A stretch of 64,000 nt of DNA from an uncultured Pelagibacteraceae bacterium (GTDB taxonomy: Bacteria > Pseudomonadota > Alphaproteobacteria > Pelagibacterales > AG-422-B15), in NCBI GenBank assembly GCA_902524795.1, contig CABZEU010000003.1, positions 4,730 to 68,729 of the forward strand, given 5' to 3'. The notes beneath the pieces were generated by a model. That model was not told the origin of the DNA. It worked only from the letters and a program-made list of their open reading frames with translations, and ran no database searches. This document shows positions 1 through 25,673 of this stretch, in pieces (the first letter of the stretch is position 1; each line of letters begins with the position of its first letter). The position numbers and the translations under genes are program-made.

Positions 1-1326
1 ATTATCAGGCACAAACAGATTTTTGAAGATCCAGATACAGGTATTTATGACATCGCAGAATACAAGATTATTGACCCTGAAGATGGGACAGAAGTAAGCC
101 TTCCCGATGGACTAAGATTAAAACAAAATAAGATTCATGGATCCATTAGTACACCTGGAGTTTATTCAATAACGATAAGAGCCATTGATGGTGAAGGGCT
201 TTATGCAGATCATACGTTCACAATTACAGTAAATCCTGCACCAGGAGAAATAGCTGAAAAAGAAACTATTGATGAAGAAATACCATCCACTTATGAAACA
301 GTTGTCATTAAACCAAAGAAAGATTATTTAGCTGCAATTAAAGAAACAGTTAATGAGGGTTCATTAGGCATCACTGATGAAGGTTTTAATTTAGATACTA
401 TATCAATTGCTGATACTGCATCCCTTTCAAAACCGCTAAAATTTAATGGAGGTTTGAGATTGATGGATGCCGTTGCAAATGAAGCAGCAGGCAATGAAGA
501 GTCTGATTTATCAGTGGGTGTTAAAATAAATGATGATAACCAAAAGAATGTTGAACTGTATTCAGGAAAATTATCTGACGGGGAAGCCTTACCAGATTGG
601 ATACAAGTTAATCCTGAAACGGGAGAAACAACGGCCGATATGCCCGAGGATATTCAAGAAGTTGAAGTCCAACTAGTTGCTCTAGACAAAGACGGCAATA
701 CAAGAGACATTAATATTGTTCTGGATAAAGCAAAAATTAAAAACGACCAAGACTTTACTAGGGGCACAGTTGGTCAAACTCAGGTTGTGGTTGATAATGA
801 TGCCAATGTAAATCTTATTCGTAAAACTGACGGAAAAACAAATCAAGTTGCGTCAAATAATTTAAATGCGGAAACTGATTTCCTAGGAACCATGAAACTA
901 AGTGATATTCAAGTTGATGCAGGCAAGTATACGTTGGATGTAATCGATGACAATCAATCGAATGTAAAATTCTATAAAGCTGAGATGAAAGATGGGAGCT
1001 CTTTGCCTGAATGGATTACCATTGATCCAGAAACAGGAGCTATTTCAGCAGACCCATCAATAGGTCGAACGGGTTCTGCAGCCCCAGCATTTTTAACAAA
1101 TAGTCTTCAAGTCCTTGAGTTAAAAATTATTGCTGAAGATGAAGATGGTAAAGAGAGAATAATTGAAGTTGATATTAATCTTGATGAAATCGCTGCTCCA
1201 TCTGAGACTGAAAAGCAAGCTGAGGAAACTGATGAAGTATCATTTATACCTCTTGATGAACAACTTAAGGTACAGTCTCAGAAAATAGATAATTATGGCG
1301 AAAAAATTATTAGTCTTGTAAGCTAA
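1..1326 (+). CDS. C-terminal end of a large secreted repeat protein (cadherin-like / putative-Ig repeat adhesin), 5' partial
   Basis: Frame 1 is open from nt 1 to the stop at 1324-1326, so the listed TTG start at 454 is internal. Three degenerate repeats share one signature: SLPDGLRLKQNKIHGSISTPGVYSITIRAIDGEG; ALPDWIQVNPETGETTADMP...VALDKDGN; SLPEWITIDPETGAISADPS...IAEDEDGKE. This pattern is typical of dystroglycan/cadherin-like Ig domains in giant bacterial surface proteins. The protein is acidic, and I saw no RTX GGxGxD repeats. Confidence 0.7.
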   Translation: MIRHKQIFEDPDTGIYDIAEYKIIDPEDGTEVSLPDGLRLKQNKIHGSISTPGVYSITIRAIDGEGLYADHTFTITVNPAPGEIAEKETIDEEIPSTYETVVIKPKKDYLAAIKETVNEGSLGITDEGFNLDTISIADTASLSKPLKFNGGLRLMDAVANEAAGNEESDLSVGVKINDDNQKNVELYSGKLSDGEALPDWIQVNPETGETTADMPEDIQEVEVQLVALDKDGNTRDINIVLDKAKIKNDQDFTRGTVGQTQVVVDNDANVNLIRKTDGKTNQVASNNLNAETDFLGTMKLSDIQVDAGKYTLDVIDDNQSNVKFYKAEMKDGSSLPEWITIDPETGAISADPSIGRTGSAAPAFLTNSLQVLELKIIAEDEDGKERIIEVDINLDEIAAPSETEKQAEETDEVSFIPLDEQLKVQSQKIDNYGEKIISLVS

Positions 1327-1338
1327 TTCTGTAAATAA

Positions 1339-2058
1339 ATGAATAAAGTTAAAACATCGTTAGCAACGTTTTGCTTTCTTTTTATATCTTTTGACGCACT
1401 AGCTGAAGAAAGATCAACACGTATTTTAGTTACTGCAACTGAAGAGGCGACTTTATCAAGTGAAATTTCAGCAAAAATAATCTCTATTCCTGTAAAAGCA
1501 GGAAATAACTTTAGTAAATCAGATATTTTAATTGAATTTGACTGTTCTTTTTTTGAAGCCCAAAAAGATGTTGTTCAAGCAGAACTTGATAGTGCTAGGG
1601 TAACTTTAAAAAGCAATCAAGAGCTTGCTGCGATGAGATCTATTGGAGAGTATGAAGTTCAACTATCTCAAATAGCAGTCGATCGAGCACAATCAGAATT
1701 AAATATTGCGGAACTCAACACTGATCGTTGTATTATTCGAGCACCCTATGACGGAGTCATGTCCAAAGTTTTTGTAAATGAGTACGAAAGTATTGAAAGG
1801 CAACAGCCATTGATTGAAATTATTGGGTCAGGCACATTGGAAGCAAAACTTATGATATCAAGTAAATGGCTATCATGGTTATCTGAAGGACATCCTCTAA
1901 GTATAGTTATTGATGAGAATGGCTTAGAGTATAGTGCACAAATACATTCTTTGGGTGCAGATATAGATCCGGTAAGTCAGACGATTGATGCTACCGCACA
2001 ATTTGATAAAAATTATAAGACATTACTTCCAGGAATGAGTGGGACAGCAACGTTTTGA
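1339..2058 (+). CDS. Periplasmic membrane-fusion (HlyD/RND-adaptor family) protein with signal peptide
   Basis: N-terminal signal peptide (MNKVKTSLATFCFLFISFDALA/EE). Short coiled-coil segment. MFP lipoyl/beta-barrel motif IIRAPYDGVMSKVFVNEYESIERQQPLIEII. Starts 12 nt after the repeat protein. Confidence 0.7.
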   Translation: MNKVKTSLATFCFLFISFDALAEERSTRILVTATEEATLSSEISAKIISIPVKAGNNFSKSDILIEFDCSFFEAQKDVVQAELDSARVTLKSNQELAAMRSIGEYEVQLSQIAVDRAQSELNIAELNTDRCIIRAPYDGVMSKVFVNEYESIERQQPLIEIIGSGTLEAKLMISSKWLSWLSEGHPLSIVIDENGLEYSAQIHSLGADIDPVSQTIDATAQFDKNYKTLLPGMSGTATF

Positions 2059-3398
2059 ATGATAATTCTTCAATAAAAATTGCACGACTAATTACACTTG
2101 AAAAAAAGTTTCGTAACGCTGAAAGTGAGACAGAACTTGGTTTTATTTGTGCAAACGAATTACGGAGTATAGTTGACTATAATTTCTTATTTCTTCTCAA
2201 CAGATCAAGCATAAACCGGCTTAAAGTGAATACTATTTCTGATTTATCAGTCATTGATAGAACTGCTCCAACCGTAACCTTTATTGAGGGATTGCTCAAT
2301 AAGAAAGGAATGATCAATAGTGATGAAGTATCTGCAATTAGTCTTCAAAGCCTTGATTTAGATAAAGTAAACCTAAGCATCCCTGAAAATTTTCCAAATC
2401 ATTTAGTTTTTGTTCCTTTGTCTTCTCGAATAGAAAAAAATATTGGTTACTTAGTTCTTGTAAGAACAGAATCAGTTACAAGTTCAGAAAAAGATTTATT
2501 ATTACACATCTCCGAAAGCTTTAGCCACGCACTCACTGCTTTTGGTTCAAAAAGAACGGTTTTAACAAGTATCAGTCGTATATTCACAGGGTGGGTAAAG
2601 TGGCTAGTGATTGCATCCATAACTGTGGTGATGTTCTTTCCTATTAGCATGTCAGCTTTGGCACCAGTAGAGGTGGTTGCAAAAGATCCAACCATTGTCA
2701 CATCACCTGTGAATGGTGTTATTGAAAAAGTCTTAATTAAGACCAACGAAAATGTAAAACCAGGTACGGAACTAGTTAAACTAGACGATTTAAATTTTAA
2801 AAATCAGTATGAAATTGCACTTCAAAAACTTGAAGTAGCTGAAGCTGAGCTGTTAAGAGCTAAGCAGTCATCATTTTCAAATGAAGATGATAAAGCACGC
2901 CTGGTTGAGCTTTCAACTGAAGTAGGGTTAAGGAAAAAAGAAGCCACTTATGCAGAAGAACAATTGAAGTATTCAATCATTTCTGCAGAGCGAGAAGGTA
3001 TAGCCGTAGTTGAAGACTTTACTGATTGGCAAGGGAGACCTGTTACCATTGGCGAAAAAATATTAACTATAGCTGATCCTCAACACGTTGAATTTCAAAT
3101 CTTTTTGCCCACAAAAGATTCTCTTTTGATTAAAAAAGAAGCCAGAGTAAAAATATTTTTAGATAGTGATCCCCTTAATTCTCTTGAAGGAGAAGTCTTG
3201 CGTACTTCATATAAGCCGGCTCTTACGGCTGAGAATATTTTAGCATATCAGATTTTTGCAAAATTAGATGAAAACCAAGGAGAAGTTCCGAGAATAGGAT
3301 TACGAGGTACAGCAAAAATTTACGGAGAAAAAACAAGTATCTTTTATTACATATTCCGCGTTCCTATAAATCTTACAAGACAATTTTTAGGTTTTTAG
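2055..3398 (+). CDS. HlyD-family membrane-fusion protein with a ~180 aa N-terminal cytoplasmic domain and one TM helix
   Basis: TTG start overlaps the upstream TGA (TTGA). TM segment WLVIASITVVMFFPISM. Then VVAKDPTIVTSPVNGVIEKVLIKTNENVKPGTELVKLDD, a coiled coil (LEVAEAELLRAKQ) and IISAEREGIAVVED, as in HlyD adaptors. The N-terminal domain looks GAF-like by eye only. Confidence 0.65.
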   Translation: MNDNSSIKIARLITLEKKFRNAESETELGFICANELRSIVDYNFLFLLNRSSINRLKVNTISDLSVIDRTAPTVTFIEGLLNKKGMINSDEVSAISLQSLDLDKVNLSIPENFPNHLVFVPLSSRIEKNIGYLVLVRTESVTSSEKDLLLHISESFSHALTAFGSKRTVLTSISRIFTGWVKWLVIASITVVMFFPISMSALAPVEVVAKDPTIVTSPVNGVIEKVLIKTNENVKPGTELVKLDDLNFKNQYEIALQKLEVAEAELLRAKQSSFSNEDDKARLVELSTEVGLRKKEATYAEEQLKYSIISAEREGIAVVEDFTDWQGRPVTIGEKILTIADPQHVEFQIFLPTKDSLLIKKEARVKIFLDSDPLNSLEGEVLRTSYKPALTAENILAYQIFAKLDENQGEVPRIGLRGTAKIYGEKTSIFYYIFRVPINLTRQFLGF

Positions 3399-5504
3399 AT
3401 GACTGTTCCATACTTAAGACAAGATTTGAAATTGAGTGAGGGTCCCAAAAAAGAGGACGGCTCTTCATCGTGGCTACTTTATGACTCTTTAAGAAATAAA
3501 TATTTTTCAATCAATAAAAATGCTTTTGATCTTTTAAAAAACTGGTCAAGTGGATCTCAATTAGATGATTTCATAAAAAAAATTAATGAAATTAACTTAT
3601 TAGTAAGTGAAGAAGAAATAAATGAGTTTATCAATTTTCTAGATCAAAATAATTTGACGATCAAAAAGACCAGTGAAGAAGTAAAGTCTTTGGTGGTTCA
3701 AAAAAACAAAACGAATAAACATTGGTTACTTAAACTCATTCACAATTATCTATTTTTCAAAATACCTTTATTAAGACCAGGCACCTGGCTCCAAAGAACC
3801 TTACCTATTGCCATGTTCTTAAGCTCATTAACAGTCAGACGAATTATTTATGGTTTAGGAATAATTGGAATATTTCTGACAATAACTAATTATGAGAAAT
3901 TTCTCTCAACTTTTTCATATTTTTATAATATTAATGGCTTGATCTTATTTGGAATCACGATCATTTTTGTGAAAGCTTTACATGAGTTAGGTCATGCCTA
4001 TGTAGCTACATATTATAAGTGTAAAGTTTCATCTATTGGCCTAGCTATGCTGGTGTTTTTTCCATTTTTATATACGGATACATCCGATGCCTGGAAACTC
4101 ACTGACCACAGAAAGCGTTTACTAATAAATTTTGCAGGTATGTTAACTGAACTGCACCTAGCCTTGATTGCTACATTTGCATGGGCTGTATTTCCAGATG
4201 GTATTATGAAAAGTGCAGCATTTTTCATTGCTACATCAAGTTGGATTTCATCTTTATTGATCAACATAAGTCCTTTTATGAGGTTTGATGGCTATTATGT
4301 GCTCTCTGATTTTCTCAAAGCTGAAAACTTGCAACCGCGTTCATTTGCTTTAGGTCGATGGCAGATAAGAGAGTGGCTCTTTGGTTTTAAATTTCAGCCA
4401 CCAGAACAGTTGATCGCTAACAGAAGGTGGACTTTTATAATTTATGCATGGGCTACGTGGATTTATCGTTTCTTTATTTTTATTGGTATTGCATTATTGG
4501 TTTATTATTTAACATTTAAAATATTAGGAATTATTTTATTTGTAATAGAAATTGTGTGGTTCATTTTATTGCCGATTGCTAGAGAAGTTATTCAATGGTG
4601 GAAGCTTAGAAGGTCAATGAAATTGAATAGATCTTCTATGAGGTCAATCGTCTTGTTCACAGCATTTATGTTTGCCATGCTTGTTCCATGGCGCACATCC
4701 CTAAGTTTGCCAGCTGTTATTGAAGAAGGTGTTGTTCTTGATATTTTTGCATCGGAAGACTCCAAGATAAGAAAGGTCAATGTTTCACATAATCAGTATG
4801 TAGCTGAGGGAGACTTGCTAGTTGTTATGACCAGTCCTTTGATCTCTAATAAAGTTGAAAAAGCAATAGATCGCGTAAAAATGATACAGCAAAAACTTGA
4901 TCGTAGAGTGGGATCAAAGCTTGATCTTAGTAACCTATTAATACTTGAGAATGAGTTACAAAAAGAGATTGAAATTTTGAATTCTTTGAAAGAAGAAAAT
5001 AAAGCTTTATCAATTTATGCACCATCAGATGGCATAATAAAAGATTTGATAAGTCTCAACGCTAATCAATGGGTAAATAAAAAAGATAAGCTATTTTCAA
5101 TCGTTCAGTCAGAAGAAGTACAAGTGATAGCCTTTGTTAGCGAGACGGATCTTGATAAAATAAAAAAAGTTTCAAGCGGCTATTTTCATGCAAAAAATAA
5201 CGAATTTGCGAAAGTCAAAGTCGAATTAGTATCATCAAATGAAACTTCAACCGAAGAATTGCTGTATTTGGCTTTGACCTCAACTTATGGAGGCACAATT
5301 GCATCAAGAGAAATACTTGGAAAGAAAAAAGTACAGAGACCTGAAAATGCTATTTATCAACTAAATTTCACTTCCTCAGAAAATCCAAAAGATTTACAAT
5401 GGCAGACAGCTGGATCTGTTAAAATAGATTCTGAAAATTATAATATTTTTCAAAATATATTTAATGCTACTACCTCAATACTCATTCAGGAAAGTGGATT
5501 TTAG
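3399..5504 (+). CDS. Polytopic M50 (site-2-protease-like) zinc metalloprotease fused to a C-terminal HlyD-like adaptor domain
   Basis: ATG directly abuts the upstream TAG. HExxH motif inside a TM region ([16 protein letters not shown]), with several further TM helices and [13 protein letters not shown]-terminal half has MFP-like motifs ([30 protein letters not shown]; coiled coil; [14 protein letters not shown]). N-terminal soluble domain: [14 protein letters not shown]...[25 protein letters not shown]. Confidence 0.75.
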
Positions 5505-6121
5505 TTAATTTCAAGACCGCCCTCAGTTTTGAGAAACTCAGCAACATTTTCTATACCCTTATTATTCTTCATTTCACCAAATATATAAGGCATGCCTGAT
5601 CGGGCAGTTTCAACATCTAATTTCATTTGATCTAAATCAACATTTACGTGATTTGCTAAATCGGTTTTATTGATGATTAGTAAATCAGATTTTTTTATTG
5701 CTGGTCCACCTTTACGAGGAATATCACCTCCCATTCCAACATCAATTACATAGATTGATAAATCTACCAACTCCGGACTAAAAGTTGCAGCTAAATTATC
5801 TCCACCTGACTCAATCAATAGCAACTGTAAATCAGGAAATTTTTGTTTCATTTCTTCTACAGCCAAGAGGTTAATTGAAGCATCTTCTCTAATTGCGGTA
5901 TGAGGGCATCCACCTGTTTCGACGCCTTTAATTCTCTCAATTGGTAAAACTTGAGCTCTCATTAAATACTCGGCATCCTCGATTGTATAAATATCATTGG
6001 ATATAACTGCCATTGAAATATTTTTAGATAAATTTTTGCACAAAGCCTCAGTAAGACTTGTTTTACCAGCACCTACAGGGCCGCCGATACCAATTTTTAA
6101 TGGACCTCGAAAATTATTCAT
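5501..6121 (-). CDS. ureG: Urease accessory GTPase UreG
   Basis: P-loop [13 protein letters not shown], plus ESGGDNL and NKTDL motifs. The likely start is the ATG at 6121 ([14 protein letters not shown]), which forms an ATGA overlap with the ureF stop. The ORF-track start at 6178 is an over-extension. Confidence 0.95.
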
Positions 6122-6777
6122 GTGACATAAATTCTGGATGTAAGATTTTCGTGTTTCATGCTGTAAATATCTGCACAAAACATTGAACTGCGTAAATCGT
6201 CTAAGCTATAGTCTTTCATCGTATTATGGAAACTTTTCATCATTCCAAGAAATGACACCATACAATCTTGGCCATCTTTCTGGCTTAAAGGTATATGTTT
6301 AACGCACATATTGATTAAGTTTGAGATGAATGATTGGATATAAAAGTCAACCAAATCATCAAAAGCAATATGAAATTTAATTCCTGCTTGAGCAATACAG
6401 ACTGGAAAAGCAGTCTCATTATTTATTGTATAGCCCCAACTCTCAGACATAATTTTTCGGAAGGCATCACCCATTTTGAGTGTTTCAAGTTGACGTTCCT
6501 TGGATGAGCAACTTGCAAGCACTAAATCATTCACATTAATTCCATCATAGGTAGCCTTGATAAAGATATACTCATTTCTGCATGTTCCCTCAAAGAGAAT
6601 ACTTTTAATAAATTCCAATACGTCATTTTTATTTTTGATTAGCTTATCATCAATTAAAGCCTCGAGACCATGCGAATATGCGTATGAACCAATAGGAAAT
6701 GAAGACGAGAACCAAAGATGTAAAATTTGATGAGATTTTAAATCCAATGAGTTTTTATCTTTAATGCTTGTGACCAT
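6118..6777 (-). CDS. ureF: Urease accessory protein UreF
   Basis: UreF N-terminal signature [22 protein letters not shown], and position between ureE and ureG. Start is uncertain: ATG at 6777 or 6795, TTG at 6825. Confidence 0.85.
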
Positions 6778-7204
6778 GCGTTCTCCCCAAACCATAAGCC
6801 CCTCCTTCAGGATTAAATTGTTCAATCACAGATTTTGTCTGCCCCCCAAGTCTTCTCACCATATCCTCAATTATATGGTCACTTTGTATTAGAATTCTTG
6901 TAGCTTCAATCTGACAGGGGATATGTCTATTCCCAATATGCCATATTAATTTATTTAAACTTTCTGACTTGATCTCAATTAAATTTTCTTTTTTTGATTT
7001 TATAGTAATTAATTTTCCACTCTTAAGTTTGAACGCTTGATTACTCAAGACTGATTTCATCTCTTCAAGATCAACAAGAAATTCATGACCTTTGTCAGAA
7101 ACTAATTTTTTGCGTCGCATGAATCTCTCCTCATAAGATAGCGAAATTGTATCAACAACTTCGGAGGAATCACAGTTACTTAATATTGAATTACAAATTT
7201 CCAT
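6761..7204 (-). CDS. ureE: Urease accessory metallochaperone UreE
   Basis: Position between ureC and ureF. Size 147 aa. His-rich C-terminal tail GRTHGHKH, typical of Ni-binding UreE. Confidence 0.85.
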   Translation of the reverse strand: MEICNSILSNCDSSEVVDTISLSYEERFMRRKKLVSDKGHEFLVDLEEMKSVLSNQAFKLKSGKLITIKSKKENLIEIKSESLNKLIWHIGNRHIPCQIEATRILIQSDHIIEDMVRRLGGQTKSVIEQFNPEGGAYGLGRTHGHKH

Positions 7205-7206
7205 AA

Positions 7207-8913
7207 TCAGTACATAAAATATCTTTGTGCCATTGGCAGTTCTTCTGCAGGTTCACATGTTATAATTTCTCCATTTGCTCTAACCTCATATGTTTCAGGA
7301 TTTACATCTATAGATGGACAAACATCATTTAAAACCATATCTTTTTTTGAAATTGACCTTGTATTGCTTACCGGCAGCATATTTTTTTGTATATTGAGAT
7401 GATCAAGGCTGCCTGCCTCCAGAGAACTCTTGCTGACAAAAGTTACCGATGAGTTTTCAAGCGATCTTCCATAACTTCCAAACATTGGGCGGGTATATAC
7501 AGGTTGGGGAGTTGGAATCGATGCGTTTGGATCGCCCATTTGAGCGCAGGCAATACTCCCACCCATTATTACAATCTCAGGCTTAACACCAAAGAAAGCT
7601 GGGTCCCAGATAACGATATCTGCTCTTTTATTTTTTTCGAGACTGCCAACATAGGAAGAAATTCCATGAGCAATTGACGGATTTATTGTATATTTTGCAA
7701 GGTATCGTTTGACTCTTAAATTATCATTATCGCCTTGCTCTTCAGACAGTCTTCCTCGTTGGACTTTCATTTTATGGGCTGTTTGCCATGTTCTAATAAT
7801 AACCTCACCAACGCGTCCCATAGCTTGACTGTCAGATGCGATGATTGAGAAAGCACCCATATCGTGCAAAATGTCTTCAGCAGCCATCGTCTCTCTCCGT
7901 ATTCTACTCTCAGCAAATGCTACGTCTTCAGGTATTGATTTATCAAGGTGATGGCAAACCATCAGCATATCTAAATGCTCTTCAACAGTGTTAACAGTAA
8001 ATGGTCGTGTTGGATTAGTTGAAGATGGCAAAACATATGGTTCACCACAAATTTTTATTATATCAGGCGCGTGTCCACCACCTGCACCCTCAGTATGAAA
8101 TGTATGAATGGTTCTTTTATTAATTGCATTAATTGTATTTTCTACAAAACCGCTTTCATTGAGCGTATCAGTATGTATCATGACCTGAACGTCGAATTTA
8201 TCAGCAACATTTAAACAATTATCAATTGCACCAGGAGTAGACCCCCAGTCCTCATGAAGTTTGAGAGCAGCTGCTCCACCAAGAACTTGTTCCTCTAAAC
8301 CAGAAGGCATCGAAGAATTTCCTTTGCCTGCATAAGCTAAATTCATCGAGAAAGCATCAGATGATTGAAGCATCCTGCCGATGTGCCATGGCCCTGGCGT
8401 GCAAGTAGTTGCTAATGTTCCATGTGCTGGTCCAGTACCTCCACCCAGCATCGTAGTAATGCCAGAATGTAAGGCGTCATCAATTTGCTGAGGACATATG
8501 AAATGTATATGACTATCAAAGCCGCCCGCCGTTACAATTTTACCTTCACCTGCAATAACTTCAGTACCTGGACCAATTATAATATCCACATCGGGTTGTG
8601 TATCAGGGTTACCAGCTTTTCCAATATGGTCAATATTTCCGTTCTTTAGTCCAATATCTGCTTTATATATTCCGGTGACATCTAGAATCAGAGCATTTGT
8701 AATAACTGTGTCTACGGCTCCATCACTTCTTGAAACCTGAGACTGTCCCATGCCATCGCGAATAACTTTGCCGCCACCAAACTTAACTTCCTCACCGTAG
8801 ACTGTGAGGTCTTTTTCAACCTCTATGAAAAGTTCAGTATCAGCTAACCTTACTTTATCCCCTGTTGTGGGGCCATACATAGCTACATAAGATTGTCTTG
8901 GAATTTTTTTCAT
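7207..8913 (-). CDS. ureC: Urease alpha subunit
   Basis: 568 aa with hallmark motifs [35 protein letters not shown] and KLHEDWG. Confidence 0.97.
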
Positions 8914-9218
8914 TTAATTTTTCCCATAACTTTTTTATTAAACCCAAATATTTTTTTTAGTCCCTGTATTTCGATAAGCTCAACATCTCTTGTTTGTCCA
9001 GGTTCAAACCTTACTGCGGTTCCAGATGAAATGTTTAGTCTCATGCCTAAAGATTTCTTTCTATCAAATTCAAGACTTTCATTTACTTCAGCAAAATGAT
9101 AGTGGCTACCGACTTGAATTGGACGATCACCAGTGTTGGAGACTTTCATTGTCAAACTCACTAAATCTTTATTTAAAATTATTTCACTGTCACTTGTAAT
9201 TATTTCTCCTGGAATCAT
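8910..9218 (-). CDS. ureB: Urease beta subunit
   Basis: 102 aa. MIPGEI...[19 protein letters not shown] is the conserved UreB core. ATGA overlap with ureC. Confidence 0.95.
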
Positions 9219-9225
9219 ATAATTC

Positions 9226-9528
9226 TTACCTTATGGGTTTATGTACTGTGACCAACTTTGTTCCATCTGGAAAAGTTGCTTCTGTCTGCACTTCGGCAAT
9301 CATTTCAGCAACTCCTTCCATACAGTCATCTTTTTTTAATACATGTGCTGCGCTTTCCATAAGTTCAGCTACAGATTTGCCATCCCTTGCACCCTCAACA
9401 ACATAATCCGAAATAATTGATACAGCTTCAGGATAATTTAATTTAACACCACGGTCTAACCTCTTTCGAGCGACTATTGCAGCCATGCTGACCATCATTT
9501 TATCAATCTCTCTTGGGGAAAGCTTCAC
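9226..9528 (-). CDS. ureA: Urease gamma subunit
   Basis: (M)[35 protein letters not shown] matches the UreA N-terminus. The GTG at 9528 gives the canonical 100 aa length and overlaps the ureD TGA (GTGA). The ORF-track start at 9540 is also GTG. Confidence 0.93.
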
Positions 9529-10322
9529 GCAGCACCCCACATGTAAGGAATTTTATCATTCATCATGATTGATACGATATTTTTTGTAAATTTTTTTAAA
9601 TAATAGTTATTAGATGAAATACTTCTTATTACTATCTTACCATCCCACTCTGAAATACCAGTAGTTATACTTTTTTCATCATGTATATTATCTTTTAATA
9701 CAGTATAAAATTTATTCATTTCTGAACCTAGTATTATTATTGTATTAATTGCAATACTATCATTAAGCATAAATTTACTATTCCGCATTCTTTTTATATT
9801 ATCTGCAAAGCCATTGATTTCAAGGTGAGCAATTTTATTATCATTAAATATTTTCCATCGATCAGAGTAGTAACCTTTTTCAATCGTTTCATTCATTGCT
9901 GATCTTCCATAAACAACTGTTTCGCAAAAAAATAAATTTGAATTATTCAAAAGATTGACATCAATTTGACGTCTTAGGTTGCAGTTATCAAAGAGGATTG
10001 TTTCATTTGGTATCCAAAAAAGAGTACTGTTATCAATGTTAATTGTGTATTTAAGTTCAGCCGCGTCTCCATATCCACTATACACCTTCTCAGCAGCCTG
10101 ACTTGTAGTAAGCATATGTGTATTGTGTAAGTCTATATTGGAATTAAACTTATCCCCACTCGTTACGCCTCCAGATGTATTAACTAAAACTAGTTGAGAT
10201 AAACTAGAGTAGGATTGAGGTAGTAAAGCTTTAAGGCATCCTTGCTGATATAATTTTTTAACATCATTATTTATAAACTCGACATCAATTTTTCCTAAAG
10301 ATTTTTGTAGATTTACTTTCAT
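9525..10322 (-). CDS. ureD: Urease accessory protein UreD
   Basis: First gene of the ureDABCEFG array, ~265 aa. The ATG at 10322 ([16 protein letters not shown]) is preferred over the TTG at 10349. Confidence 0.85.
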
Positions 10323-10349
10323 AAAATTATCATAGTGTTTTAATTTCAA

Positions 10350-10508
10350 GTTGACAAATAATTGTCATTTATTTTTATCACTAAAATTACAGATACTAAT
10401 TAGTAATATAAAAATTACGTTTAATTTTTTTTTTTGAAGATGTCATGTTGGCAAGTGTAAAGATTCGTATCACTAATTTTTTTAAGAAATTATGTATCAG
10501 TTAAAAAA
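10350..10508. promoter_or_regulatory. Divergent ure/urt intergenic control region with two perfect palindromes
   Basis: 159 nt between divergent ureD and urtA. TGACAAATAATTGTCA at 10352-10367 (5-bp arms, 6-nt spacer). TACTAATTAGTA at 10394-10405. AAAATTAC occurs twice (10383-10390 and 10411-10418). No confident -35/-10 assignment. Confidence 0.3.
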
Positions 10509-11789
10509 ATGAAAGGACGAATAATGATCAAGAAAATTATAGTTGTTATGTCATTTTTCTTTTTTAGTATCACTGCGTATGCAGATACTATCAAAGTTGG
10601 CATATTACACTCGCTGTCGGGTACGATGGCAATCTCAGAGACAACGTTAAAAGATACAATGTTAATGTTGATCGATGAACAAAATGAAAAGGGCGGTATT
10701 CTCGGAAAAAAACTGGAGGCAGTAGTTGTTGATCCTGCTTCAGATTGGCCACTTTTTGCGGAAAAAGCTCGAGAACTAATAACTGTCAATGATGTTGATG
10801 TAATGTTTGGCTGCTGGACTTCTGTGTCTAGAAAGTCTGTATTACCCGTAATTGAAGAACTTAACGGATTACTTTTTTATCCAGTTCAATATGAAGGTGA
10901 AGAAAGCTCAAAAAATGTATTTTATACCGGAGCTGCTCCAAACCAACAAGCCATACCAGCTACTGATTACTATCTAGAAGAACTAGGTATTGAAAAGTTC
11001 GCATTACTCGGAACTGACTACGTTTATCCTAGAACGACAAACAAAATTCTAAATCAATATTTAATTGATAAAGGAATACCTGAGTCTGATATTTTTGTAA
11101 ATTATACACCTTTTGGTCACTCGGATTGGTCGAAAATTGTTGCTGATGTTGTAGCACTTGGGGCTGATGGAAAGAAGGTAGGTGTTATTTCAACTATTAA
11201 CGGTGATGCAAACATTGGATTTTATAAAGAACTTGCAGCTGCAGGTGTGAACGCTGAAGACATACCAGTTGTCGCATTCTCGGTTGGTGAAGAGGAATTA
11301 TCCGGACTTGATACAACAAATTTGGTTGGCCACCTAGCTGCGTGGAATTATTTTCAATCAGCTGAGTCTGACTTAAATACAGCATTTATCAAAAACTGGA
11401 AAAGCACTATGGGATCAGAAAGAGTTACCAATGACCCAATGGAAGCACACGTGATTGGATTTAACATGTATGTAAAAGCAGTGGAAAAAGCTGGAACTAC
11501 TGACGTAGATGCAGTAAGAGAAGCAATGTATGGAATTACAGTTCCAAATCTCACGGGTGGAACTGCTGAAATGCTCCCAAATCATCATCTCTCTAAACCT
11601 GTTTTAATTGGTGAGATCCTTGAAGATGGTCAGTTTGATATAATTAGCCAAACGACGGAGGTTCCAGGAGATGCGTGGACTGATCACTTAGTAGAGTCAG
11701 CTGTTTTAACATCAGATTGGCAAAGCTTAGGTTGTGGGATGTATAATACTTCGACCAGCAGTTGTGTTCAGTTAAAGTCTAACTACTAA
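10509..11789 (+). CDS. urtA: Urea ABC transporter substrate-binding protein UrtA
   Basis: Signal peptide followed by the highly conserved UrtA N-terminus TIKVGILHSLSGTMAISE. 426 aa, LivJ-type fold. Precedes urtBCDE. Confidence 0.9.
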   Translation: MKGRIMIKKIIVVMSFFFFSITAYADTIKVGILHSLSGTMAISETTLKDTMLMLIDEQNEKGGILGKKLEAVVVDPASDWPLFAEKARELITVNDVDVMFGCWTSVSRKSVLPVIEELNGLLFYPVQYEGEESSKNVFYTGAAPNQQAIPATDYYLEELGIEKFALLGTDYVYPRTTNKILNQYLIDKGIPESDIFVNYTPFGHSDWSKIVADVVALGADGKKVGVISTINGDANIGFYKELAAAGVNAEDIPVVAFSVGEEELSGLDTTNLVGHLAAWNYFQSAESDLNTAFIKNWKSTMGSERVTNDPMEAHVIGFNMYVKAVEKAGTTDVDAVREAMYGITVPNLTGGTAEMLPNHHLSKPVLIGEILEDGQFDIISQTTEVPGDAWTDHLVESAVLTSDWQSLGCGMYNTSTSSCVQLKSNY

Positions 11790-11802
11790 TTTTAACCCAA
11801 AT

Positions 11803-11845
11803 AAAACGCTGTAAAGAATAGTTTATATTCTTTATGGCGTTTTTA
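11803..11845 (+). terminator. Intrinsic terminator/attenuator hairpin between urtA and urtB
   Basis: 15-bp stem (11806-11820 pairs with 11826-11840, including two G-U wobbles), 5-nt loop GTTTA, followed by TTTTT (11841-11845) and preceded by an A-run. Confidence 0.65.
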
Positions 11846-11849
11846 AATT

Positions 11850-13862
11850 ATGAAAATAAAATTTTATATAATTCTTCTGTATGCTTTTTTTATAAATCTA
11901 CCAGCAGTTGCTCACCATGATGAATTTAACATATTCTTAATAGAAAATTCAGAAAATATAATTAAGAGTTCAGCAAAAACTGTTGACTCTATATTAAGAG
12001 ACATACAAAGCTTTGATGATGAAATTGTCTCAAGATTTTTAGAACTGTGGAAATCGAAGAGTCTCTACTATATAAAAGATACTAAACAAGTAGTTATAAT
12101 TAATGAAAATAACGAGTCATTTGATGCCTTAGAAATAGATGGCCTTACTAAGATTGGCAATTACAGCAAAAAAGAAATTAAAAAAATTAAACCCAATAGT
12201 GGAGTAAGAGCAAAAATAGATTCTCTTTTAGTAAAATACCAAATTTCTAATTCAGATATTAATGTAAGAAGAAAAAGCTTAGATAGCTTAAAAAGAAACA
12301 TCCAGCTTGAACATTTGGCAGTGTTACAAGATGCTTACATAAATGAGTCAGATGCAGAACTAAAAACTGCTATTGATCGATTGCTAAAGTTTGCAATTAT
12401 TAAGTACTCTGACTCGAATGATAAAAAATTAGAAATAATCGAATCTTTTAAAGGCGATACTGCGATCGAGATAAGGGCCTCTCTAAATCAACTCCTAAAT
12501 TCTTCTGAAGTGAAAATTAGCATTTCTCTTCCTAATAACAAAAATATTGCTAGGATAATTGTGCCTGGTTTTACAATCAAAAATAGTAATGGAACATCGG
12601 GTACAACTAATTTTTTTAATGAGGACGTTGAGATATCAATTAATGATGCATATGACAAATTATATGCTGATAATCTAGTTTTTAAAAAAAGGATTACCCC
12701 AGAAGAATTAAAGAAAATATTAGAACAAAATATTATCGAAGATACCATTGGAGGATATTCTATTAGTTCACTAGACAATGAACAATCTCGAATTGCTGCG
12801 TATAATAAATTAGTTGTAAATAATTTAGCACCTCCTTTTATTTCTGAAAAAAAAATTAATGAAGAAGTAAACAAATTTATATTTTATTCGGTTTACAATG
12901 AAACTTCTTCTGAAGTAACAAATGCCGCCCTAAATACTCTAGCTAGTATAAATTTTAAAGTTCAGATCTACAAATATATTGACTTATTTATTGACGGTTT
13001 AAGTCTTGCGTCAATCTATTTTCTTGGAGCAATTGGTTTAGCGATTACTTTTGGTGTAATGAGAGTAATAAATATGGCTCATGGTGAATTTATCATGATG
13101 GGGGCCTATACGGGGTATGTTGTTCAACAATTTATAAGTAACCATACACTATCACTTTTAGTTGCACTTCCCCTCGCATTTATAATTACATTTATTGCTG
13201 GTGTGATTATGGAAAGACTCGTTATACGTCATTTGTATCGTAAACCACTTGATACATTGCTGGCTACTTTCGGGATCAGTATTGCATTACAACAAATTGC
13301 AAAGAATATTTTTGGAACGCAAGCAAGACCACTTACGTCTCCATCGTGGCTTGATGGATCACTCAGTCTTAGCGACGATCTATCGATCAGTTATATAAGA
13401 ATTGCGATATTTATTTTGAGTTTAATATTTCTTGGTTTGCTGCTCTTTGTAATGAATCGTACCAGACTTGGATTGGAGACGCGTGCAGTGACCCAAAATC
13501 CAGTGATGGCCTCCAATATGGGAATTAATCCTGAAAGAATAAATATGTTAACTTTTGGCTTTGGTTCAGGAATTGCGGGAATTGCAGGAATTGCTATTGG
13601 ACTTTTTTCCAAAGTTACATCTGAGCTTGGGTCTGAATATATAGTTCAGAGTTTTATGACAGTGGTTGTTGGAGGAGTGGGCAACATATGGGGCACATTA
13701 GCGGGAGCCTCACTAATCGGGTTCCTTCAAAAATTTATAGAATGGTTCAATCCATCTAATACTCTCGCAGCGCAAACTTATATGATCATCTTTATTATTT
13801 TATTTATACAATTTAGACCAAAAGGGATAGTAGCCCTTAAAGGGAGAGCAGCTGATGACTAA
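11850..13862 (+). CDS. urtB: Urea ABC transporter permease UrtB with a ~375 aa N-terminal extension
   Basis: The C-terminal ~295 aa is a LivH-type permease (LAITFGVMRVINMAHGEF). The N-terminus has a signal-like segment (MKIKFYIILLYAFFINLPAVA) followed by a long hydrophilic domain. Confidence 0.9.
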   Translation: MKIKFYIILLYAFFINLPAVAHHDEFNIFLIENSENIIKSSAKTVDSILRDIQSFDDEIVSRFLELWKSKSLYYIKDTKQVVIINENNESFDALEIDGLTKIGNYSKKEIKKIKPNSGVRAKIDSLLVKYQISNSDINVRRKSLDSLKRNIQLEHLAVLQDAYINESDAELKTAIDRLLKFAIIKYSDSNDKKLEIIESFKGDTAIEIRASLNQLLNSSEVKISISLPNNKNIARIIVPGFTIKNSNGTSGTTNFFNEDVEISINDAYDKLYADNLVFKKRITPEELKKILEQNIIEDTIGGYSISSLDNEQSRIAAYNKLVVNNLAPPFISEKKINEEVNKFIFYSVYNETSSEVTNAALNTLASINFKVQIYKYIDLFIDGLSLASIYFLGAIGLAITFGVMRVINMAHGEFIMMGAYTGYVVQQFISNHTLSLLVALPLAFIITFIAGVIMERLVIRHLYRKPLDTLLATFGISIALQQIAKNIFGTQARPLTSPSWLDGSLSLSDDLSISYIRIAIFILSLIFLGLLLFVMNRTRLGLETRAVTQNPVMASNMGINPERINMLTFGFGSGIAGIAGIAIGLFSKVTSELGSEYIVQSFMTVVVGGVGNIWGTLAGASLIGFLQKFIEWFNPSNTLAAQTYMIIFIILFIQFRPKGIVALKGRAADD

Positions 13863-15024
13863 TTCAATAAATGATTTACTAGCTCGACACACATTAATTT
13901 TTACAATAGTTGTTGTTATATTTTCTCTGTTTATAACTTTTTTTAGTGAACCTTACGGAAACGGATTAATATCTACTAGTTTTGTCAAAACTTTAGGCAA
14001 AACTGTTTGTCTATGCATAATTGCTCTGGCGATGGATGTGGTATGGGGTTATTGCGGAATTCTATCTCTAGGGCATTTCGCCTTTTTTGGACTTGGTGGT
14101 TACATGATTGGAATGTGGCTAATGTATGAGCGAACAGCCATTATTGTTCAGGAGGCTGCCACTAATGAGTTGCTTCCATTAACCGAAACTGAATTATCAA
14201 ATGCAATTGGAAACCAGATTTTTGGAGTTGTCGGCGGCTATGACATACCATCCATATGGATGTTTGCAGATAGTCTTGGTTTACAATTGATTTTAGTTAT
14301 TGCAGTACCTGGTATTCTTGCATTTATATTTGGGTGGCTTGCATTCAGGTCGAGAGTAACTGGAGTTTATCTCTCAATTTTAACTCAAGCATTAACTTTA
14401 GCTCTGTCACTATATTTATTTCAAAATGACAGTGGTCTGAGGGGTAATAACGGCCTCTCCGGTTTGCAGAACATTCCTGGCATTGAGTATTTAGGGCAAG
14501 AGGTCATATCTATAGGGTTTTTTTGGGCAAGTTGTATTTTTTTAATATCTATTTTTTTACTTTTTCATTCACTCATGAAAAGTAAGTTTGGATTAATTAT
14601 TACATCAATAAGAGATAATGAAACACGAGTAAGGTTCTTAGGCTACAATGTCGAAATATATAAATTATTTATATTTGTGTTAACCGCAATAATCTCAAGC
14701 ATTGCTGGTGCTCTTTATTACCCTCAAGCAGGTATAATTAATCCTGCAGAGCTTGCGCCTATTGCATCGATCTATCTCGCTGTATGGGTTGCAATTGGAG
14801 GAAGAGGAAAATTGTATGGAGCAATCATTGGTGCCGCTTTTGTTTCATTATTTTCGTCATGGTTTACTGGTGGACAGGCACCCGATATTCCTTTGGGCAT
14901 ATTTACTATAGAATGGGTTAATTGGTGGACAGTTTTGTTAGGCTTTGGATTTGTAATAATCACAATTTTTAGTGAAAATGGAATAATTGGTTTTTTAAGA
15001 AATATATTTGTTAAGGAAAAATGA
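13855..15024 (+). CDS. urtC: Urea ABC transporter permease UrtC
   Basis: LivM-type permease (GILSLGHFAFFGLGGYM; IRDNETRVRFLGY). Overlaps urtB by 8 nt. Confidence 0.9.
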   Translation: MTNSINDLLARHTLIFTIVVVIFSLFITFFSEPYGNGLISTSFVKTLGKTVCLCIIALAMDVVWGYCGILSLGHFAFFGLGGYMIGMWLMYERTAIIVQEAATNELLPLTETELSNAIGNQIFGVVGGYDIPSIWMFADSLGLQLILVIAVPGILAFIFGWLAFRSRVTGVYLSILTQALTLALSLYLFQNDSGLRGNNGLSGLQNIPGIEYLGQEVISIGFFWASCIFLISIFLLFHSLMKSKFGLIITSIRDNETRVRFLGYNVEIYKLFIFVLTAIISSIAGALYYPQAGIINPAELAPIASIYLAVWVAIGGRGKLYGAIIGAAFVSLFSSWFTGGQAPDIPLGIFTIEWVNWWTVLLGFGFVIITIFSENGIIGFLRNIFVKEK

Positions 15025-15803
15025 ATACTTTATTGAAAGTTGAAAAAATTTCGGTTTCATTTGATGGCTTTAAAGCTATTAATAGTTTGAGTTACAGCAT
15101 TGGTAAAAATGAACTCAAAGCGATTATTGGACCAAATGGAGCTGGAAAAACTACCTTTATGGATATAATTACGGGCCAAACTAAACCAGATGAAGGTAAA
15201 GTATTATTTGGTGAACGAAGCGTATGGCTTGAAAGTGATCAAAAATATCAAGTCGTTTGGGATGAAAATCTTCTAATGAAAAGTGAGTCTCAAATAGCAT
15301 TACTGGGTATAGGAAGAAAATTTCAACGTCCTACTGTATTTGAGCTAAAAACAGTATTCGAAAATTTATTTATATCCATGAAGAAAAATAGAAATCCTTT
15401 TAGTGTTTTATTCCAAAAATTAAATAGAGATGAAAAAAATCTGATAGAAAAAATACTAGGTGAAATTAGCCTTAAAAATGAACAAGATAGAATTGCTGGT
15501 GAGTTATCACACGGTCAAAAGCAGTGGTTAGAAATAGGAATGCTATTAACTCAAGAACCAAAGCTATTATTAATTGATGAACCAGCAGCTGGAATGACTT
15601 CTAATGAAAGAAGACAGACAGTTGAGATCCTTAAAAAATTATCTGCAGATAAGTCAGTTATTGTTGTTGAGCATGATATGGAATTTGTAAAAGATCTTGA
15701 ATGTGAGGTTACTGTATTGCATGAGGGTTCAATTCTTTCAGAGGGTTCTATAGAACACGTATCCTCTAATAATGAAGTAATTGAAGTATATCTGGGAAGA
15801 TAG
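15021..15803 (+). CDS. urtD: Urea ABC transporter ATP-binding protein UrtD
   Basis: Walker A GPNGAGKTT, UrtD-typical GIGRKFQRPTVFE, signature LSHGQKQWLEIG and Walker B LLLIDEP. ATGA overlap with urtC. Confidence 0.9.
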   Translation: MNTLLKVEKISVSFDGFKAINSLSYSIGKNELKAIIGPNGAGKTTFMDIITGQTKPDEGKVLFGERSVWLESDQKYQVVWDENLLMKSESQIALLGIGRKFQRPTVFELKTVFENLFISMKKNRNPFSVLFQKLNRDEKNLIEKILGEISLKNEQDRIAGELSHGQKQWLEIGMLLTQEPKLLLIDEPAAGMTSNERRQTVEILKKLSADKSVIVVEHDMEFVKDLECEVTVLHEGSILSEGSIEHVSSNNEVIEVYLGR

Positions 15804-15805
15804 TT

Positions 15806-16501
15806 ATGATTGATATAAGTAATTTGAATTTTTACTATGGTTCTTCTCAGATATTATTTGACGTTTCACTCAAAGCGAAAAATAAAGAAATTACTTGTTT
15901 AATGGGTTCAAATGGAGTTGGTAAAACATCTTTATTAAAGTTTTTATCAGGAATTTACCCTTCAAAGTCAGGAAATTATCTTTTTGAAGGGGATAATGTA
16001 ACTAACTTTAGCTCGCACCAACTTGCTAAAAGAGGAGTTGGGTATGTTCCTCAAGGGCGTTTTATATTTCCATTATTATCTGTAAAAGAAAATTTAGAAA
16101 CTGGTTTTGCATGTTTAAAACGTGATGAACATTTCATACCTGATGAAATTTTTGACCTTTTTCCAGTATTGAAACAGATGATAAATAGAAGAGGTGGAGA
16201 TTTATCAGGAGGTCAACAACAGCAATTAGCAATCGCAAGAGCAATGATTTCAAAACCAAAACTACTACTTATGGATGAACCAACCGAGGGGATACAGCCA
16301 AACATCATCCAACAAATTGGAGAAGTCATAAAATATTTAAAAGATGAGCAGGGAATGACCATACTATTGGTTGAGCAATATTTTGATTTTGCATTTGATT
16401 TAGCAGATTATATCTATGTCATGAAAAGAGGAAAAATTATTACTGAATCAAAGAAAGAGAGCCTGGATAAATTATCGTTTAAAAATGAAGTATCAATTTG
16501 A
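15806..16501 (+). CDS. urtE: Urea ABC transporter ATP-binding protein UrtE
   Basis: Walker A GSNGVGKTS, LSGGQQQQLAIARA, LLLMDEPTEGIQP. Last gene of the urt array. Confidence 0.9.
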   Translation: MIDISNLNFYYGSSQILFDVSLKAKNKEITCLMGSNGVGKTSLLKFLSGIYPSKSGNYLFEGDNVTNFSSHQLAKRGVGYVPQGRFIFPLLSVKENLETGFACLKRDEHFIPDEIFDLFPVLKQMINRRGGDLSGGQQQQLAIARAMISKPKLLLMDEPTEGIQPNIIQQIGEVIKYLKDEQGMTILLVEQYFDFAFDLADYIYVMKRGKIITESKKESLDKLSFKNEVSI

Positions 16502-18532: not shown

Positions 18533-18560
18533 TTTTTTTATGCTATTAATATTTTTTTTA

Positions 18561-18634
18561 TGGTGCCCCCAACCTGTACTGACCAGGTATCTACGCATTA
18601 CCAATGCGTTGCACTACCATTGTGCTATGGGGGC
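18561..18634 (-). tRNA. tRNA-Thr (anticodon GGU), 74 nt with encoded CCA
   Basis: Read on the minus strand: GCCCCCA TA GCAC AATGGTA GTGC A ACGCA TTGGTAA TGCGT AGAT ACCTG GTCAGTA CAGGT TGGGGGC A CCA. Perfect 7-bp acceptor stem, 4-bp D stem, 5-bp anticodon stem and 5-bp T stem. A14, G18G19, A21, U33, A37 and G53:C61 are present. The T-loop is atypical (G54/G58). Confidence 0.75.
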
Positions 18635-24911: not shown

Positions 24912-25673
24912 TTAATTTTTTACACCGTATCCTTTTGAAATTACAATAGCTACCCCAACAATACAAGCCACTAAAAAGCCTACAAGCGATACAACACTTA
25001 TAAAGATATTAATATCTGAAGCGCCATAAAATGACCATCGCATACCATTTATAAGGTATACCACAGGATTAAAGTATGAAACTTTCTGCCAGAACTCGGG
25101 TAACATCTCGATTGTATATAAACTGCCCCCTAAAAAAACTAATGGAGTAATAATTATGAGAGGAACAACTTGCAATTGCTCAAAGTTATTGCTGAGCAAT
25201 CCAATTAAAAATCCAAATAAACTAAATGTAAGACAAGTTAAAATTAGGAGAAAAAGCATCAACAAGGGATATTGAATTTTTAGTTCAACAAAAAAACTTG
25301 CAGTAAGTAAAATTATTATACCAACAATTAAAGACTTTGTTGCACTGGCTCCAACAAATCCAATTATGATTTCCAAAGATGATACCGGCGCAGCCAACAC
25401 CTCATAAATAGAACCTGTAAATTTTGGGAAAAATATTCCAAATGCTGAGTTTGAAATACTTTGTGTTAAAAGAGTAAGCATGAGCAAGCCAGGTACTATA
25501 AATGATCCATAACTCACACCATCAAGCTCTGGTATCATGCTTCCTATTACGGATCCGAATACAATAAAATATAAAGAAGTTGAAATTACTGGTGAAAGTA
25601 TGCTTTGACCTATTGTTCTTCGCATTCTATCCATCTCGTGTAAATATATTGCTCTTATTGCGTAAAAGTTCAT
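24912..25673 (-). CDS. ABC-2 type transporter permease (YadH-like)
   Basis: 253 aa with six predicted TM segments. 1-nt overlap with the upstream ABC ATPase gene. Confidence 0.8.
   Translation of the reverse strand: MNFYAIRAIYLHEMDRMRRTIGQSILSPVISTSLYFIVFGSVIGSMIPELDGVSYGSFIVPGLLMLTLLTQSISNSAFGIFFPKFTGSIYEVLAAPVSSLEIIIGFVGASATKSLIVGIIILLTASFFVELKIQYPLLMLFLLILTCLTFSLFGFLIGLLSNNFEQLQVVPLIIITPLVFLGGSLYTIEMLPEFWQKVSYFNPVVYLINGMRWSFYGASDINIFISVVSLVGFLVACIVGVAIVISKGYGVKN

Follow-up and report, generated by a model that had tools for sequence, protein, structure and literature searches.

The first 5,504 nucleotides of the window, a 64,000-nucleotide stretch of contig CABZEU010000003.1 from an uncultured Pelagibacteraceae bacterium, carry on the plus strand the 3' tail of a gene for a very large cadherin/Ig-repeat surface protein (the cargo) and three genes for adaptors of the membrane fusion protein (MFP) type, here called MFP-A, MFP-B and the M50-MFP fusion. 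We interpret these genes, with a TolC-like outer-membrane factor (OMF) gene found beside them in related genomes, as a dedicated conduit that resembles a type I secretion system (T1SS) but would work without an ABC transporter, its place taken by an M50 protease platform that would recognise a terminus of the cargo and cleave it. The probability of this statement as a whole is put at roughly 0.6. The best named match to M50-MFP was from Candidatus Pelagibacter (48% identity), and uncultured Pelagibacteraceae single-cell genomes matched at 92-97%; the source of the window is a relative of SAR11. An exact-sequence look-up of the window M50-MFP returned no record.

A preliminary description of the window had reported four packed genes on one strand, with junctions of 12, -4 and 0 nt, and a convergent 4-nt stop overlap with ureG; the open reading frame (ORF) positions agree with both (Table 1). 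The domains it had read from the letters were backed for all four proteins by Pfam and NCBIfam profiles, and HlyD_3 and HlyD_D23 were matched by each of the three proteins encoded 3' of the cargo. The 4-nt-overlap packing was retained in Pelagibacter contigs in which M50-MFP is just 48% identical, which argues that the tight arrangement is not a chance juxtaposition. Since a promoter and terminator scan of nt 1-6500 gave signals at or below chance and was uninformative, it is the junctions by themselves that suggest co-transcription of the window genes.

The M50-MFP fusion matched Peptidase_M50 (PF02163, 36.5 bits against a cutoff of 27.2) and HlyD_3 (5e-12). Both motifs of an M50 (site-2) protease were intact (HELGH at residues 195-199 and NxxPxxxxDG at residues 289-298), and H195, E196, H199, N289, P292, D297 and G298 were invariant across 30 diverse homologues that are 32-48% identical. 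In the AlphaFold2 (AF2) model (pLDDT 85.5), residues 11-83 had the topology b-b-b-a-a-a, residues 128-428 formed a polytopic helical core and residues 430-700 a complete adaptor, joined to the protease core by a Lys/Arg-rich loop and a final transmembrane (TM) helix. Foldseek returned MacA, MexA and EmrA at 1e-12; this whole-model search was dominated by the MFP part and thereby left the domains described below as GAF-like and RRE-like (resembling the recognition element of ribosomally synthesised and post-translationally modified peptides, RiPPs) unclassified. NF041824, the daptide intramembrane metalloprotease, aligned over residues 23-390 (4e-38), with 131.4 bits against an equivalog cutoff of 300, so that the fusion is related to that family but is not a member of it. 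The isolated N-domain matched the PqqD-related WgkC at 4.9e-5 and other PqqD-type profiles weakly (E 5e-5 to 1e-2). PqqD-type families were the most recurrent matches of this domain, yet the individual families matched just 3, 2 and 1 of 28 members. A PDB sequence search found nothing with the N-domain profile and a chance match only with the full M50-MFP. Homologues of the fusion at E<=1e-30 fell into 2572 clusters at 50% identity; among the 150 best listed, most were about 700 aa long, with a match that covered almost the whole protein. The window copy belongs to a large family that has yet to be characterised by experiment.

MFP-A scored 101.5 bits against TIGR01730 RND_mfp (cutoff 94.9) and matched HlyD_3 at 5e-15. 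A hydrophobic segment at its N-terminus, read by eye as MNKVKTSLATFCFLFISFDALA/EE, is probably a signal peptide, and MFP-A is probably a small periplasmic adaptor. MFP-B (HlyD_3, 8e-13) has the parts of a HlyD-type MFP: an N-domain, a single TM helix (residues 176-198, part of a longer hydrophobic stretch, 176-209) and a periplasmic adaptor with a hairpin. Its AF2 model (pLDDT 81.8) gave a 165-residue N-domain with the GAF-like topology a-a-b-b-a-b-b-b-a and an alpha-hairpin at residues 246-305; the best Foldseek matches were MacA, MexA and AcrA at 7e-17, and EmrA was also matched. Pfam GAF was detected in 7 of 34 MFP-B orthologues (best 2.5e-5), the window copy falling below Pfam detection, and the orthologue matches are the reason why the N-domain is treated as a putative divergent GAF domain. 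The positive-inside rule would place the RRE-like and GAF-like domains in the cytoplasm and all three adaptor parts in the periplasm.

The outer-membrane partner, of which the preliminary description had seen nothing in the letters, sits just beyond the window in relatives. In every SAR11 locus with that end visible, a gene of the TolC family (Pfam OEP) was divergent from the cargo gene and immediately upstream of it (1e-14 in locus L009, 7e-29 in L078). A metagenome scan with the SAR11 OEP protein gave 23 loci of at least 7 kb. All eight SAR11 metagenome loci of this length that span the whole module have the layout <C<B<A<cargo[LEPR] OEP>, where A, B and C are the genes for MFP-A, MFP-B and M50-MFP, and in the other OEP loci of at least 7 kb the N-terminal module of the cargo was beside the OEP gene wherever the OEP-proximal end was visible. 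The SAR11 OEP gene is on its own, and the genes after it are convergent in most loci. Outside SAR11, the OEP gene lies directly before MFP-A in most taxa, and six of six genes of about 500 aa that were tested there were OEP. SAR11 OEPs are 29-37% identical over about 470 aa to the cluster OEPs of other phyla, a divergence like that of M50-MFP and consistent with co-inheritance of the two. A typical TolC has about 480 aa. The cluster OEPs are long: they have 700-916 aa in SAR11 and 639 aa on E. coli plasmids, and the 658-aa protein of Arcobacter carries an SH3_3 domain at its C-terminus (examples are L078:267-2798 (-), L094-L148, L087:7783-9702 and L032:2317-4293); the extra C-terminal region of the SAR11 protein had no Pfam match.

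A genome scan with the fusion returned loci from SAR11, Colwellia, Marinomonas, Marinobacter, Pseudomonas nitroreducens, Stutzerimonas stutzeri, Azospirillum, Neorhizobium, Hyphomicrobium, Arcobacter, Zetaproteobacteria and Nitrospira. A module of OMF, MFP-A, GAF-MFP, M50-MFP and a large protein with an N-terminal LEPR motif and DUF4347 domain recurred in Gamma-, Alpha-, Epsilon- and Zetaproteobacteria and in Nitrospira, usually in the layout OEP(~500 aa)>A>B>C, flanked closely on one side or the other by a very large ORF. A jackhmmer search for OEP drifted onto the giant proteins, after which only matches of 200-900 aa were counted. Among 80 genome loci, gene A was present in 54 and gene B in 72. 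A LEPR/DUF4347 ORF was seen in 34 of these loci, and another 21 had a large ORF with its N-terminus cut by the locus edge. Where at least 9 kb was available on both sides, a large ORF adjoined the triad in 11 of 11 SAR11 loci and in 19 of 20 others (of LEPR/DUF4347 type or edge-cut). In the Pelagibacter contigs with 48% identity, the order giant>A>B>C was kept and the downstream genes differed.

The module was also found on plasmids. A tblastn search located the fusion on Azospirillum, Cupriavidus, Burkholderia, Kosakonia, Citrobacter and E. coli replicons, where the PGAP names are generic ('HlyD family...', 'site-2 protease family protein', 'TolC family protein', 'Ig-like/DUF4347 domain-containing protein'). 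On E. coli pABWA45_1 (L090, NZ_CP022155.1 118682-138427), five genes lie between the insertion sequences (IS) ISKpn26 and IS1, in the order Ig-like protein (4457 aa), TolC (639 aa), MFP, MFP and M50-MFP, and no ATPase gene occurs inside this IS-bounded cassette. The start of its cargo reads ...RFALESRQLFDGAALAETA; the N-terminus contains ALESRQLFDGAA and matches DUF4347 at 9e-47. The block was present at >=99% identity in 24 of 5426 complete E. coli genomes, four of the copies being chromosomal. In Citrobacter pB18196_2 (L087, IncHI1B/IncP) the module again lies between IS elements, near a ter operon. The cargo of these two hosts was considered as the IncHI 'RSP' Ig-like protein and this was rejected; RSP and RSP2, reported to depend on a type IV secretion system (PMC6764697, PMC8730810), are different, smaller proteins of the Tra region.

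A dedicated machine for the adjacent giant protein, as the preliminary description had proposed, is supported by the co-occurrence of triad and large protein in the neighbourhood survey and by the five-gene E. coli cassette. We regard it as quite probable that the module is dedicated to this cargo. The competing view, in which the triad carries out efflux of small molecules or peptides or a RiPP-like maturation and export and the adjacency to large proteins is incidental, would explain why the M50 core and N-domain are most like RiPP leader peptidases (NF041824; the JGI name is 'putative peptide zinc metalloprotease') and why the adaptors resemble drug-efflux MFPs. It leaves unexplained the LEPR/DUF4347 synteny across several proteobacterial classes, Nitrospira and the mobile cassette; moreover, the clusters contained neither a conserved small ORF for a precursor nor tailoring genes such as those for radical-SAM enzymes, and the window contained no small LEPR-bearing ORF. 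This view appears very improbable. The likeness to M50 RiPP leader peptidases with PqqD-like domains (NF041824, YydH-type) consists of the alignment over residues 23-390 and the weak PqqD-family matches of the N-domain, whereas the module protein is fused to an MFP, lies outside a RiPP cluster and scores well below the family cutoff (131 against 300).

The cargo tail in the window matched He_PIG at 4e-14, with Cadherin and RibLong below cutoff (Pfam), and was 93% identical to residues 1932-2371 of the protein encoded at L006:813-7925 and 75% identical to that of L009. The contig of a related single-amplified genome (SAG), L086, starts within 4 nt of the window's first base, and since the two ends coincide, the left edge of the window is probably an assembly break inside the repeats. 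The full-length cargo has 2346-2375 aa in the closest complete loci (L006, L009, L008 and L017) and 6339-9101 aa in Pelagibacter proper. Between SAR11 lineages it ranges from 930 to 9101 aa, the lengths of A, B and C being constant (L002-L005, L078, L094-L148), a pattern that fits a hypervariable surface protein.

The N-terminus of the window copy is off the window, and its LEPR-XLL motif and DUF4347 were assigned via orthologues. In the closest complete loci the protein begins MSNKLIQALEPRLMLDGAAVATAI, and close relatives share the motif ALEPRxMLDGAA followed by DUF4347. In L009 the order after the N-terminus is DUF4347 (1e-47), eleven Cadherin_4/Big_9 repeats, Cadherin_5 and He_PIG. NCBIfam NF012209 ('LEPR-XLL domain-containing protein', a LEPRxLL-type motif of about 24 aa) scored 18.2 bits in L009 and 17.1 bits in L018 (cutoff 17). 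An alignment of 29 cargo N-termini gave the consensus l.ALEPRimFDGAAvATa, with DUF4347 next, and in about 30 loci a jackhmmer profile built from residues 1-260 of the SAR11 cargo matched a large adjacent ORF at its N-terminus. Within DUF4347 an HxxxHG...YGC pair, 43 residues apart, was nearly invariant (27 of 29 sequences), accompanied by DVAASxDxTG..GxWxLE. The pair recalls the His/Cys dyad of clan CD cysteine peptidases, and the domain may be an autoprocessing protease. Complete cargo proteins contained no RTX GGxGxD arrays.

At the other end, the extreme C-terminal motif of the cargo (Table 1) was kept in SAR11, Colwellia, Marinobacter, Arcobacter and Marinobacterium, where the gene order is cargo>(A)>B>C, and a six-frame translation of the window contains it a single time. 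A looser, weaker [FL]xxQ[LV] element is present in the cargo proteins of Azospirillum and of the E. coli plasmids. The motif may be a recognition or secretion signal. If so, a cycle like that of LapA, LapG and LapD might be envisaged, with the cargo leaving C-terminus first, through the conduit or an unlinked T1SS, and its LEPR/DUF4347 end staying behind, in the TolC/MFP tunnel or at the inner membrane, to tether the fibre. The RRE-like domain would hold the leader until GAF-gated M50 cleavage freed the adhesin. T1SS adhesins such as LapA are held by an N-terminal plug and freed by regulated proteolysis, and the conserved C-terminal motif, the folded, conserved N-terminal domain after the leader and the GAF sensor domain on MFP-B would suit such a role here. 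The resemblance, by analogy, lies in proteolysis near the N-terminus of a T1SS-type adhesin and in a cytoplasmic sensor domain; however, LapG is a periplasmic cysteine protease and LapD a c-di-GMP receptor, and genes like either were not seen in the clusters. The C-terminal motif is also clear only in the marine subset, the complete cargo proteins lack RTX repeats, and no ABC exporter is linked to the module in about 100 loci. We consider retention and release unlikely.

Where a T1SS would encode its motor, the clusters had none. No dedicated ABC exporter, a protein of about 580-720 aa with a transmembrane and a nucleotide-binding domain, was present in nt 1-12000 of the window. A scan for ABC motifs in the 80 loci found just eight small stand-alone ATPases in six loci, none of them of T1SS type or adjacent on the same strand, and the 23 SAR11 OEP loci had no ORF with ABC motifs. 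No SecA-like gene was found by its Walker A motif (GEGKT) in 85 loci; the sole ORF with GEGKT was a formate-tetrahydrofolate ligase. Genes of about 362, 384 and 636 aa that recur downstream in some Alphaproteobacteria are not ABC transporters (no Pfam match, or AAA). The energising partner that the preliminary description had not seen was also absent, as a linked ABC exporter, from all loci examined, and of the ABC exporter and TolC that it had named as marks of an ordinary T1SS locus upstream, only the TolC-family gene was found, in relatives.

The nearest ATPase-driven exporter in the window is a pair of ABC-2 permease and ABC ATPase genes on the minus strand (Table 1). In L008 and L017, which are without the urease/urea-transport block, the pair is convergent and directly follows the M50-MFP gene; its position probably reflects synteny only.

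A motor might still be encoded elsewhere, the system being T1SS-like and its ATPase (housekeeping SecA, a secondary SecA_DEAD protein, or an ABC or ABC-2 protein) merely unlinked. Such an arrangement would be compatible with our preferred reading as well as with retention and release. It is favoured by the co-encoding of related GAF-HlyD, M50-HlyD and HlyD modules with SecA_DEAD (PMC4452313). The ABC-2 pair, which is directly after M50-MFP in two loci, counts on the same side, but it is convergent, not co-transcribed, and unlinked in Pelagibacter proper and every other taxon. The IS-bounded E. coli cassette contains no ATPase, the E. coli K-12 chromosome is not known to have a secondary SecA_DEAD gene, and nothing like SecA occurred in the 85 loci. 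We judge a trans-encoded motor somewhat unlikely.

In the reading we prefer, MFP-A, the GAF-TM-MFP-B protein and the adaptor half of M50-MFP would form a periplasmic tube on the TolC-like channel of the cluster, docking in the manner known from T1SSs and tripartite efflux pumps. The polytopic M50 zinc metalloprotease would replace the ABC transporter as the inner-membrane reception platform, together with the GAF domain of MFP-B, which might gate or sense, and the cytoplasmic PqqD/RRE-like domain would recognise a conserved terminus of the cargo. The preferred signal is the N-terminal ALEPRxMFDGAA 'LEPR-XLL' leader, with IQALEPRLMLDGAAVATAI as a candidate leader peptide, because of the analogy with RiPP leader peptidases and peptidase-containing bacteriocin exporters. 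The M50 protease would clip the cargo during or after threading, so coupling export and processing; that the leader specifically is cleaved during export is conceivable rather than probable. Candidate energy sources are the proton-motive force, a ratchet driven by folding outside the cell, an ATPase encoded elsewhere and housekeeping SecA.

The proposed conduit shares with classical T1SSs (LapA-LapBCE, SiiE-SiiCDF, HlyA-HlyBD-TolC) a TolC-family OMF, an MFP that is anchored in the inner membrane and has its N-domain in the cytoplasm, and a neighbouring gene for a very large cargo, rich in repeats and without a Sec signal peptide. It differs from them in having three adaptor paralogues rather than one, in the fusion of M50 to one of these, in the lack of a clustered ABC exporter and in a cargo with N-terminal LEPR and DUF4347 and no RTX repeats. 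Peptidase-containing ABC transporters (CvaAB-TolC, colicin V) offer an analogy only: there, the exporter has its own protease, which takes off an N-terminal leader while the cargo passes out through an MFP/TolC conduit. Their protease is a cytoplasmic C39 cysteine peptidase, their motor is of the ABC type and their cargoes are small peptides with double-glycine leaders, whereas the module has an intramembrane M50 protease, no motor and a cargo of more than 2000 aa.

Several points weigh against the reading we prefer. Nothing that would supply ATP hydrolysis was found in about 100 loci, no energy-transducing component was identified, and we know of no precedent for moving a polypeptide of 2000-9000 aa across two membranes without an energy transducer. 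Known M50 proteases cut TM segments or small peptides, not giant soluble proteins. The PqqD/RRE assignment of the M50-MFP N-domain is weak, plausible from profile and model but not established, and the C-terminal motif could be the real export signal, the LEPR leader being something else. No cargo was seen in 25 of the 80 loci, though many of these are short contigs, and the ORFs of the loci were called by a simple script of our own (longest ORF, greedy removal of overlaps). Of 112 plasmids that carry a DUF4347 module, 40 are from Phaeobacter and have no M50-MFP nearby. The single Phaeobacter locus that was looked at (L091, P. inhibens pPGA1_262, 122258-127435) encodes a 1725-aa protein that has DUF4347 at its very N-terminus and no LEPR leader, and no M50-MFP, OMF or MFP gene lies within 15 kb. 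A Vibrio LEPR-XLL giant has been reported with C-terminal RTX and serralysin-type domains (PMC10868602), which hints at a classical T1SS for some members of the LEPR-XLL family.

The most specific form of the proposal would be a widespread, so far unrecognised class of secretion system across two membranes, in which an RRE-bearing intramembrane M50-MFP replaces the ABC transporter. It would need no ATPase of its own and would export LEPR-XLL/DUF4347 giants by their N-terminal leader, perhaps starting with the N-terminus and during translation; this is advanced tentatively and is, on balance, rather unlikely.

The preliminary description had known of no characterised system of this composition. 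That holds for experiment, since no experimental characterisation was found in the literature, and does not hold for bioinformatics, since the triad was described in 2015. Kamneva, Poudel and Ward (PMC4452313) reported GAF-HlyD, Peptidase_M50-HlyD and HlyD/biotin-lipoyl genes, sometimes with OEP, clustered with a secondary SecA_DEAD gene in bacteria of the Planctomycetes-Verrucomicrobia-Chlamydiae (PVC) group, Proteobacteria, Nitrospirae and Chlorobi. In their proposal the genes encode a machine related to the T1SS, in which SecA_DEAD is the ATPase and M50 the membrane pore; the biological role was called 'completely unknown', the substrate was unnamed and the link to LEPR-XLL/DUF4347 was not mentioned. 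The present module has the same three adaptor architectures (GAF-HlyD, M50-HlyD and a separate HlyD protein) and, as sometimes there, an OEP gene, but their SecA_DEAD gene has no counterpart in our 85 loci. Searches on SAR11 giant genes, DUF4347, LEPR-XLL and M50 with HlyD gave no functional study, and no paper was found that links LEPR-XLL or DUF4347 to a secretion system or the triad to this cargo; a preprint on giant proteins of Omnitrophota proved unrelated. The SecA_DEAD-less form, its systematic linkage both to LEPR-XLL/DUF4347 large proteins and to a dedicated long OMF, the presence in SAR11 and the mobile E. coli cassette were not found in the literature.

Table 1. Coordinates of the module genes, their domains and motifs, and neighbouring features in the window.
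Feature	Position (nt)	Strand	Description
Cargo gene, 3' end	1-1326	+	Last 441 codons and stop; open from nt 1, stop at 1324-1326
Cargo extreme C-terminal motif	1240-1323	+	SFIPLDEQLKVQSQKIDNYGEKIISLVS; pattern [FY]xPLxxQL(x8-12)YGxxL
MFP-A	1339-2058	+	239 aa; 12-nt gap after cargo stop
MFP-A hydrophobic segment	1339-1404	+	Probable signal peptide
MFP-B	2055-3398	+	447 aa; TTG start; 4-nt overlap (TTGA) with MFP-A stop
MFP-B N-domain	2061-2543	+	GAF-like
MFP-B TM helix	~2580-2648	+	
MFP-B adaptor	2649-3395	+	Periplasmic, with alpha-hairpin
M50-MFP fusion	3399-5504	+	701 aa; ATG directly after preceding TAG (0-nt junction)
M50-MFP N-domain	3399-3668	+	PqqD/RRE-like
M50 core	3780-4682	+	
M50 motif HExxH	3981-3995	+	
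M50 motif NxxPxxxxDG	4263-4292	+	
M50-MFP, MFP part	4686-5501	+	
ureG-like ORF	5501-6178	-	Convergent 4-nt overlap with M50-MFP
Urease operon and importer	5501-16501	-, then +	ureDABCEFG (-), then importer (+)
Urease alpha-subunit gene	7207-8913	-	
Rfam RF02514 match	8475-8760	+	'5_ureB_sRNA'
S9 ORF	16493-18634	-	703 aa; listed start TTG
tRNA-Thr	18561-18634	-	
ABC-2 permease and ABC ATPase	24912-26596	-	

The sequence on the far side of M50-MFP varies between close relatives. In AG-430-F17, which is 92% identical, a Wzy_C (O-antigen-ligase-like) gene is inserted between M50-MFP and ureG (L001/L007, 3037-4305 (+)), where the window has the 4-nt stop overlap. In the window the module is followed by a complete urease operon and then, on the plus strand, by an ABC importer of the urea/branched-chain type, made up of a Peripla_BP_5/6 binding protein and BPD_transp_2 permeases. 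This urease/urea-transport block is missing at the same position in L006, L008 and L017 and, judged from these comparisons, behaves as an insertion or deletion adjoining the module. Antisense within the urease alpha-subunit gene, Rfam RF02514 scored 104 bits (gathering score 40). We take this family to be a cis-antisense RNA of Helicobacter ureB, and the match may reflect only conserved urease coding sequence. Farther along, an ORF listed for a prolyl oligopeptidase (S9) overlaps a tRNA-Thr gene on the same strand, so its real start must be downstream of the listed TTG.

SAR11 bacteria are among the most abundant in the ocean and have highly streamlined genomes, and a member of this group keeps a five-gene block whose cargo runs from 930 to more than 9000 aa. 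The machinery is present in thousands of protein clusters, and IS-flanked copies occur on plasmids of clinical and environmental E. coli and Citrobacter. The E. coli cassette opens the question to ordinary genetics. If a protein of several thousand residues is exported without an ABC transporter, this would extend the accepted routes across the two Gram-negative membranes, and it would give a first function to the M50-HlyD fusion family, to DUF4347 and to the LEPR-XLL motif.

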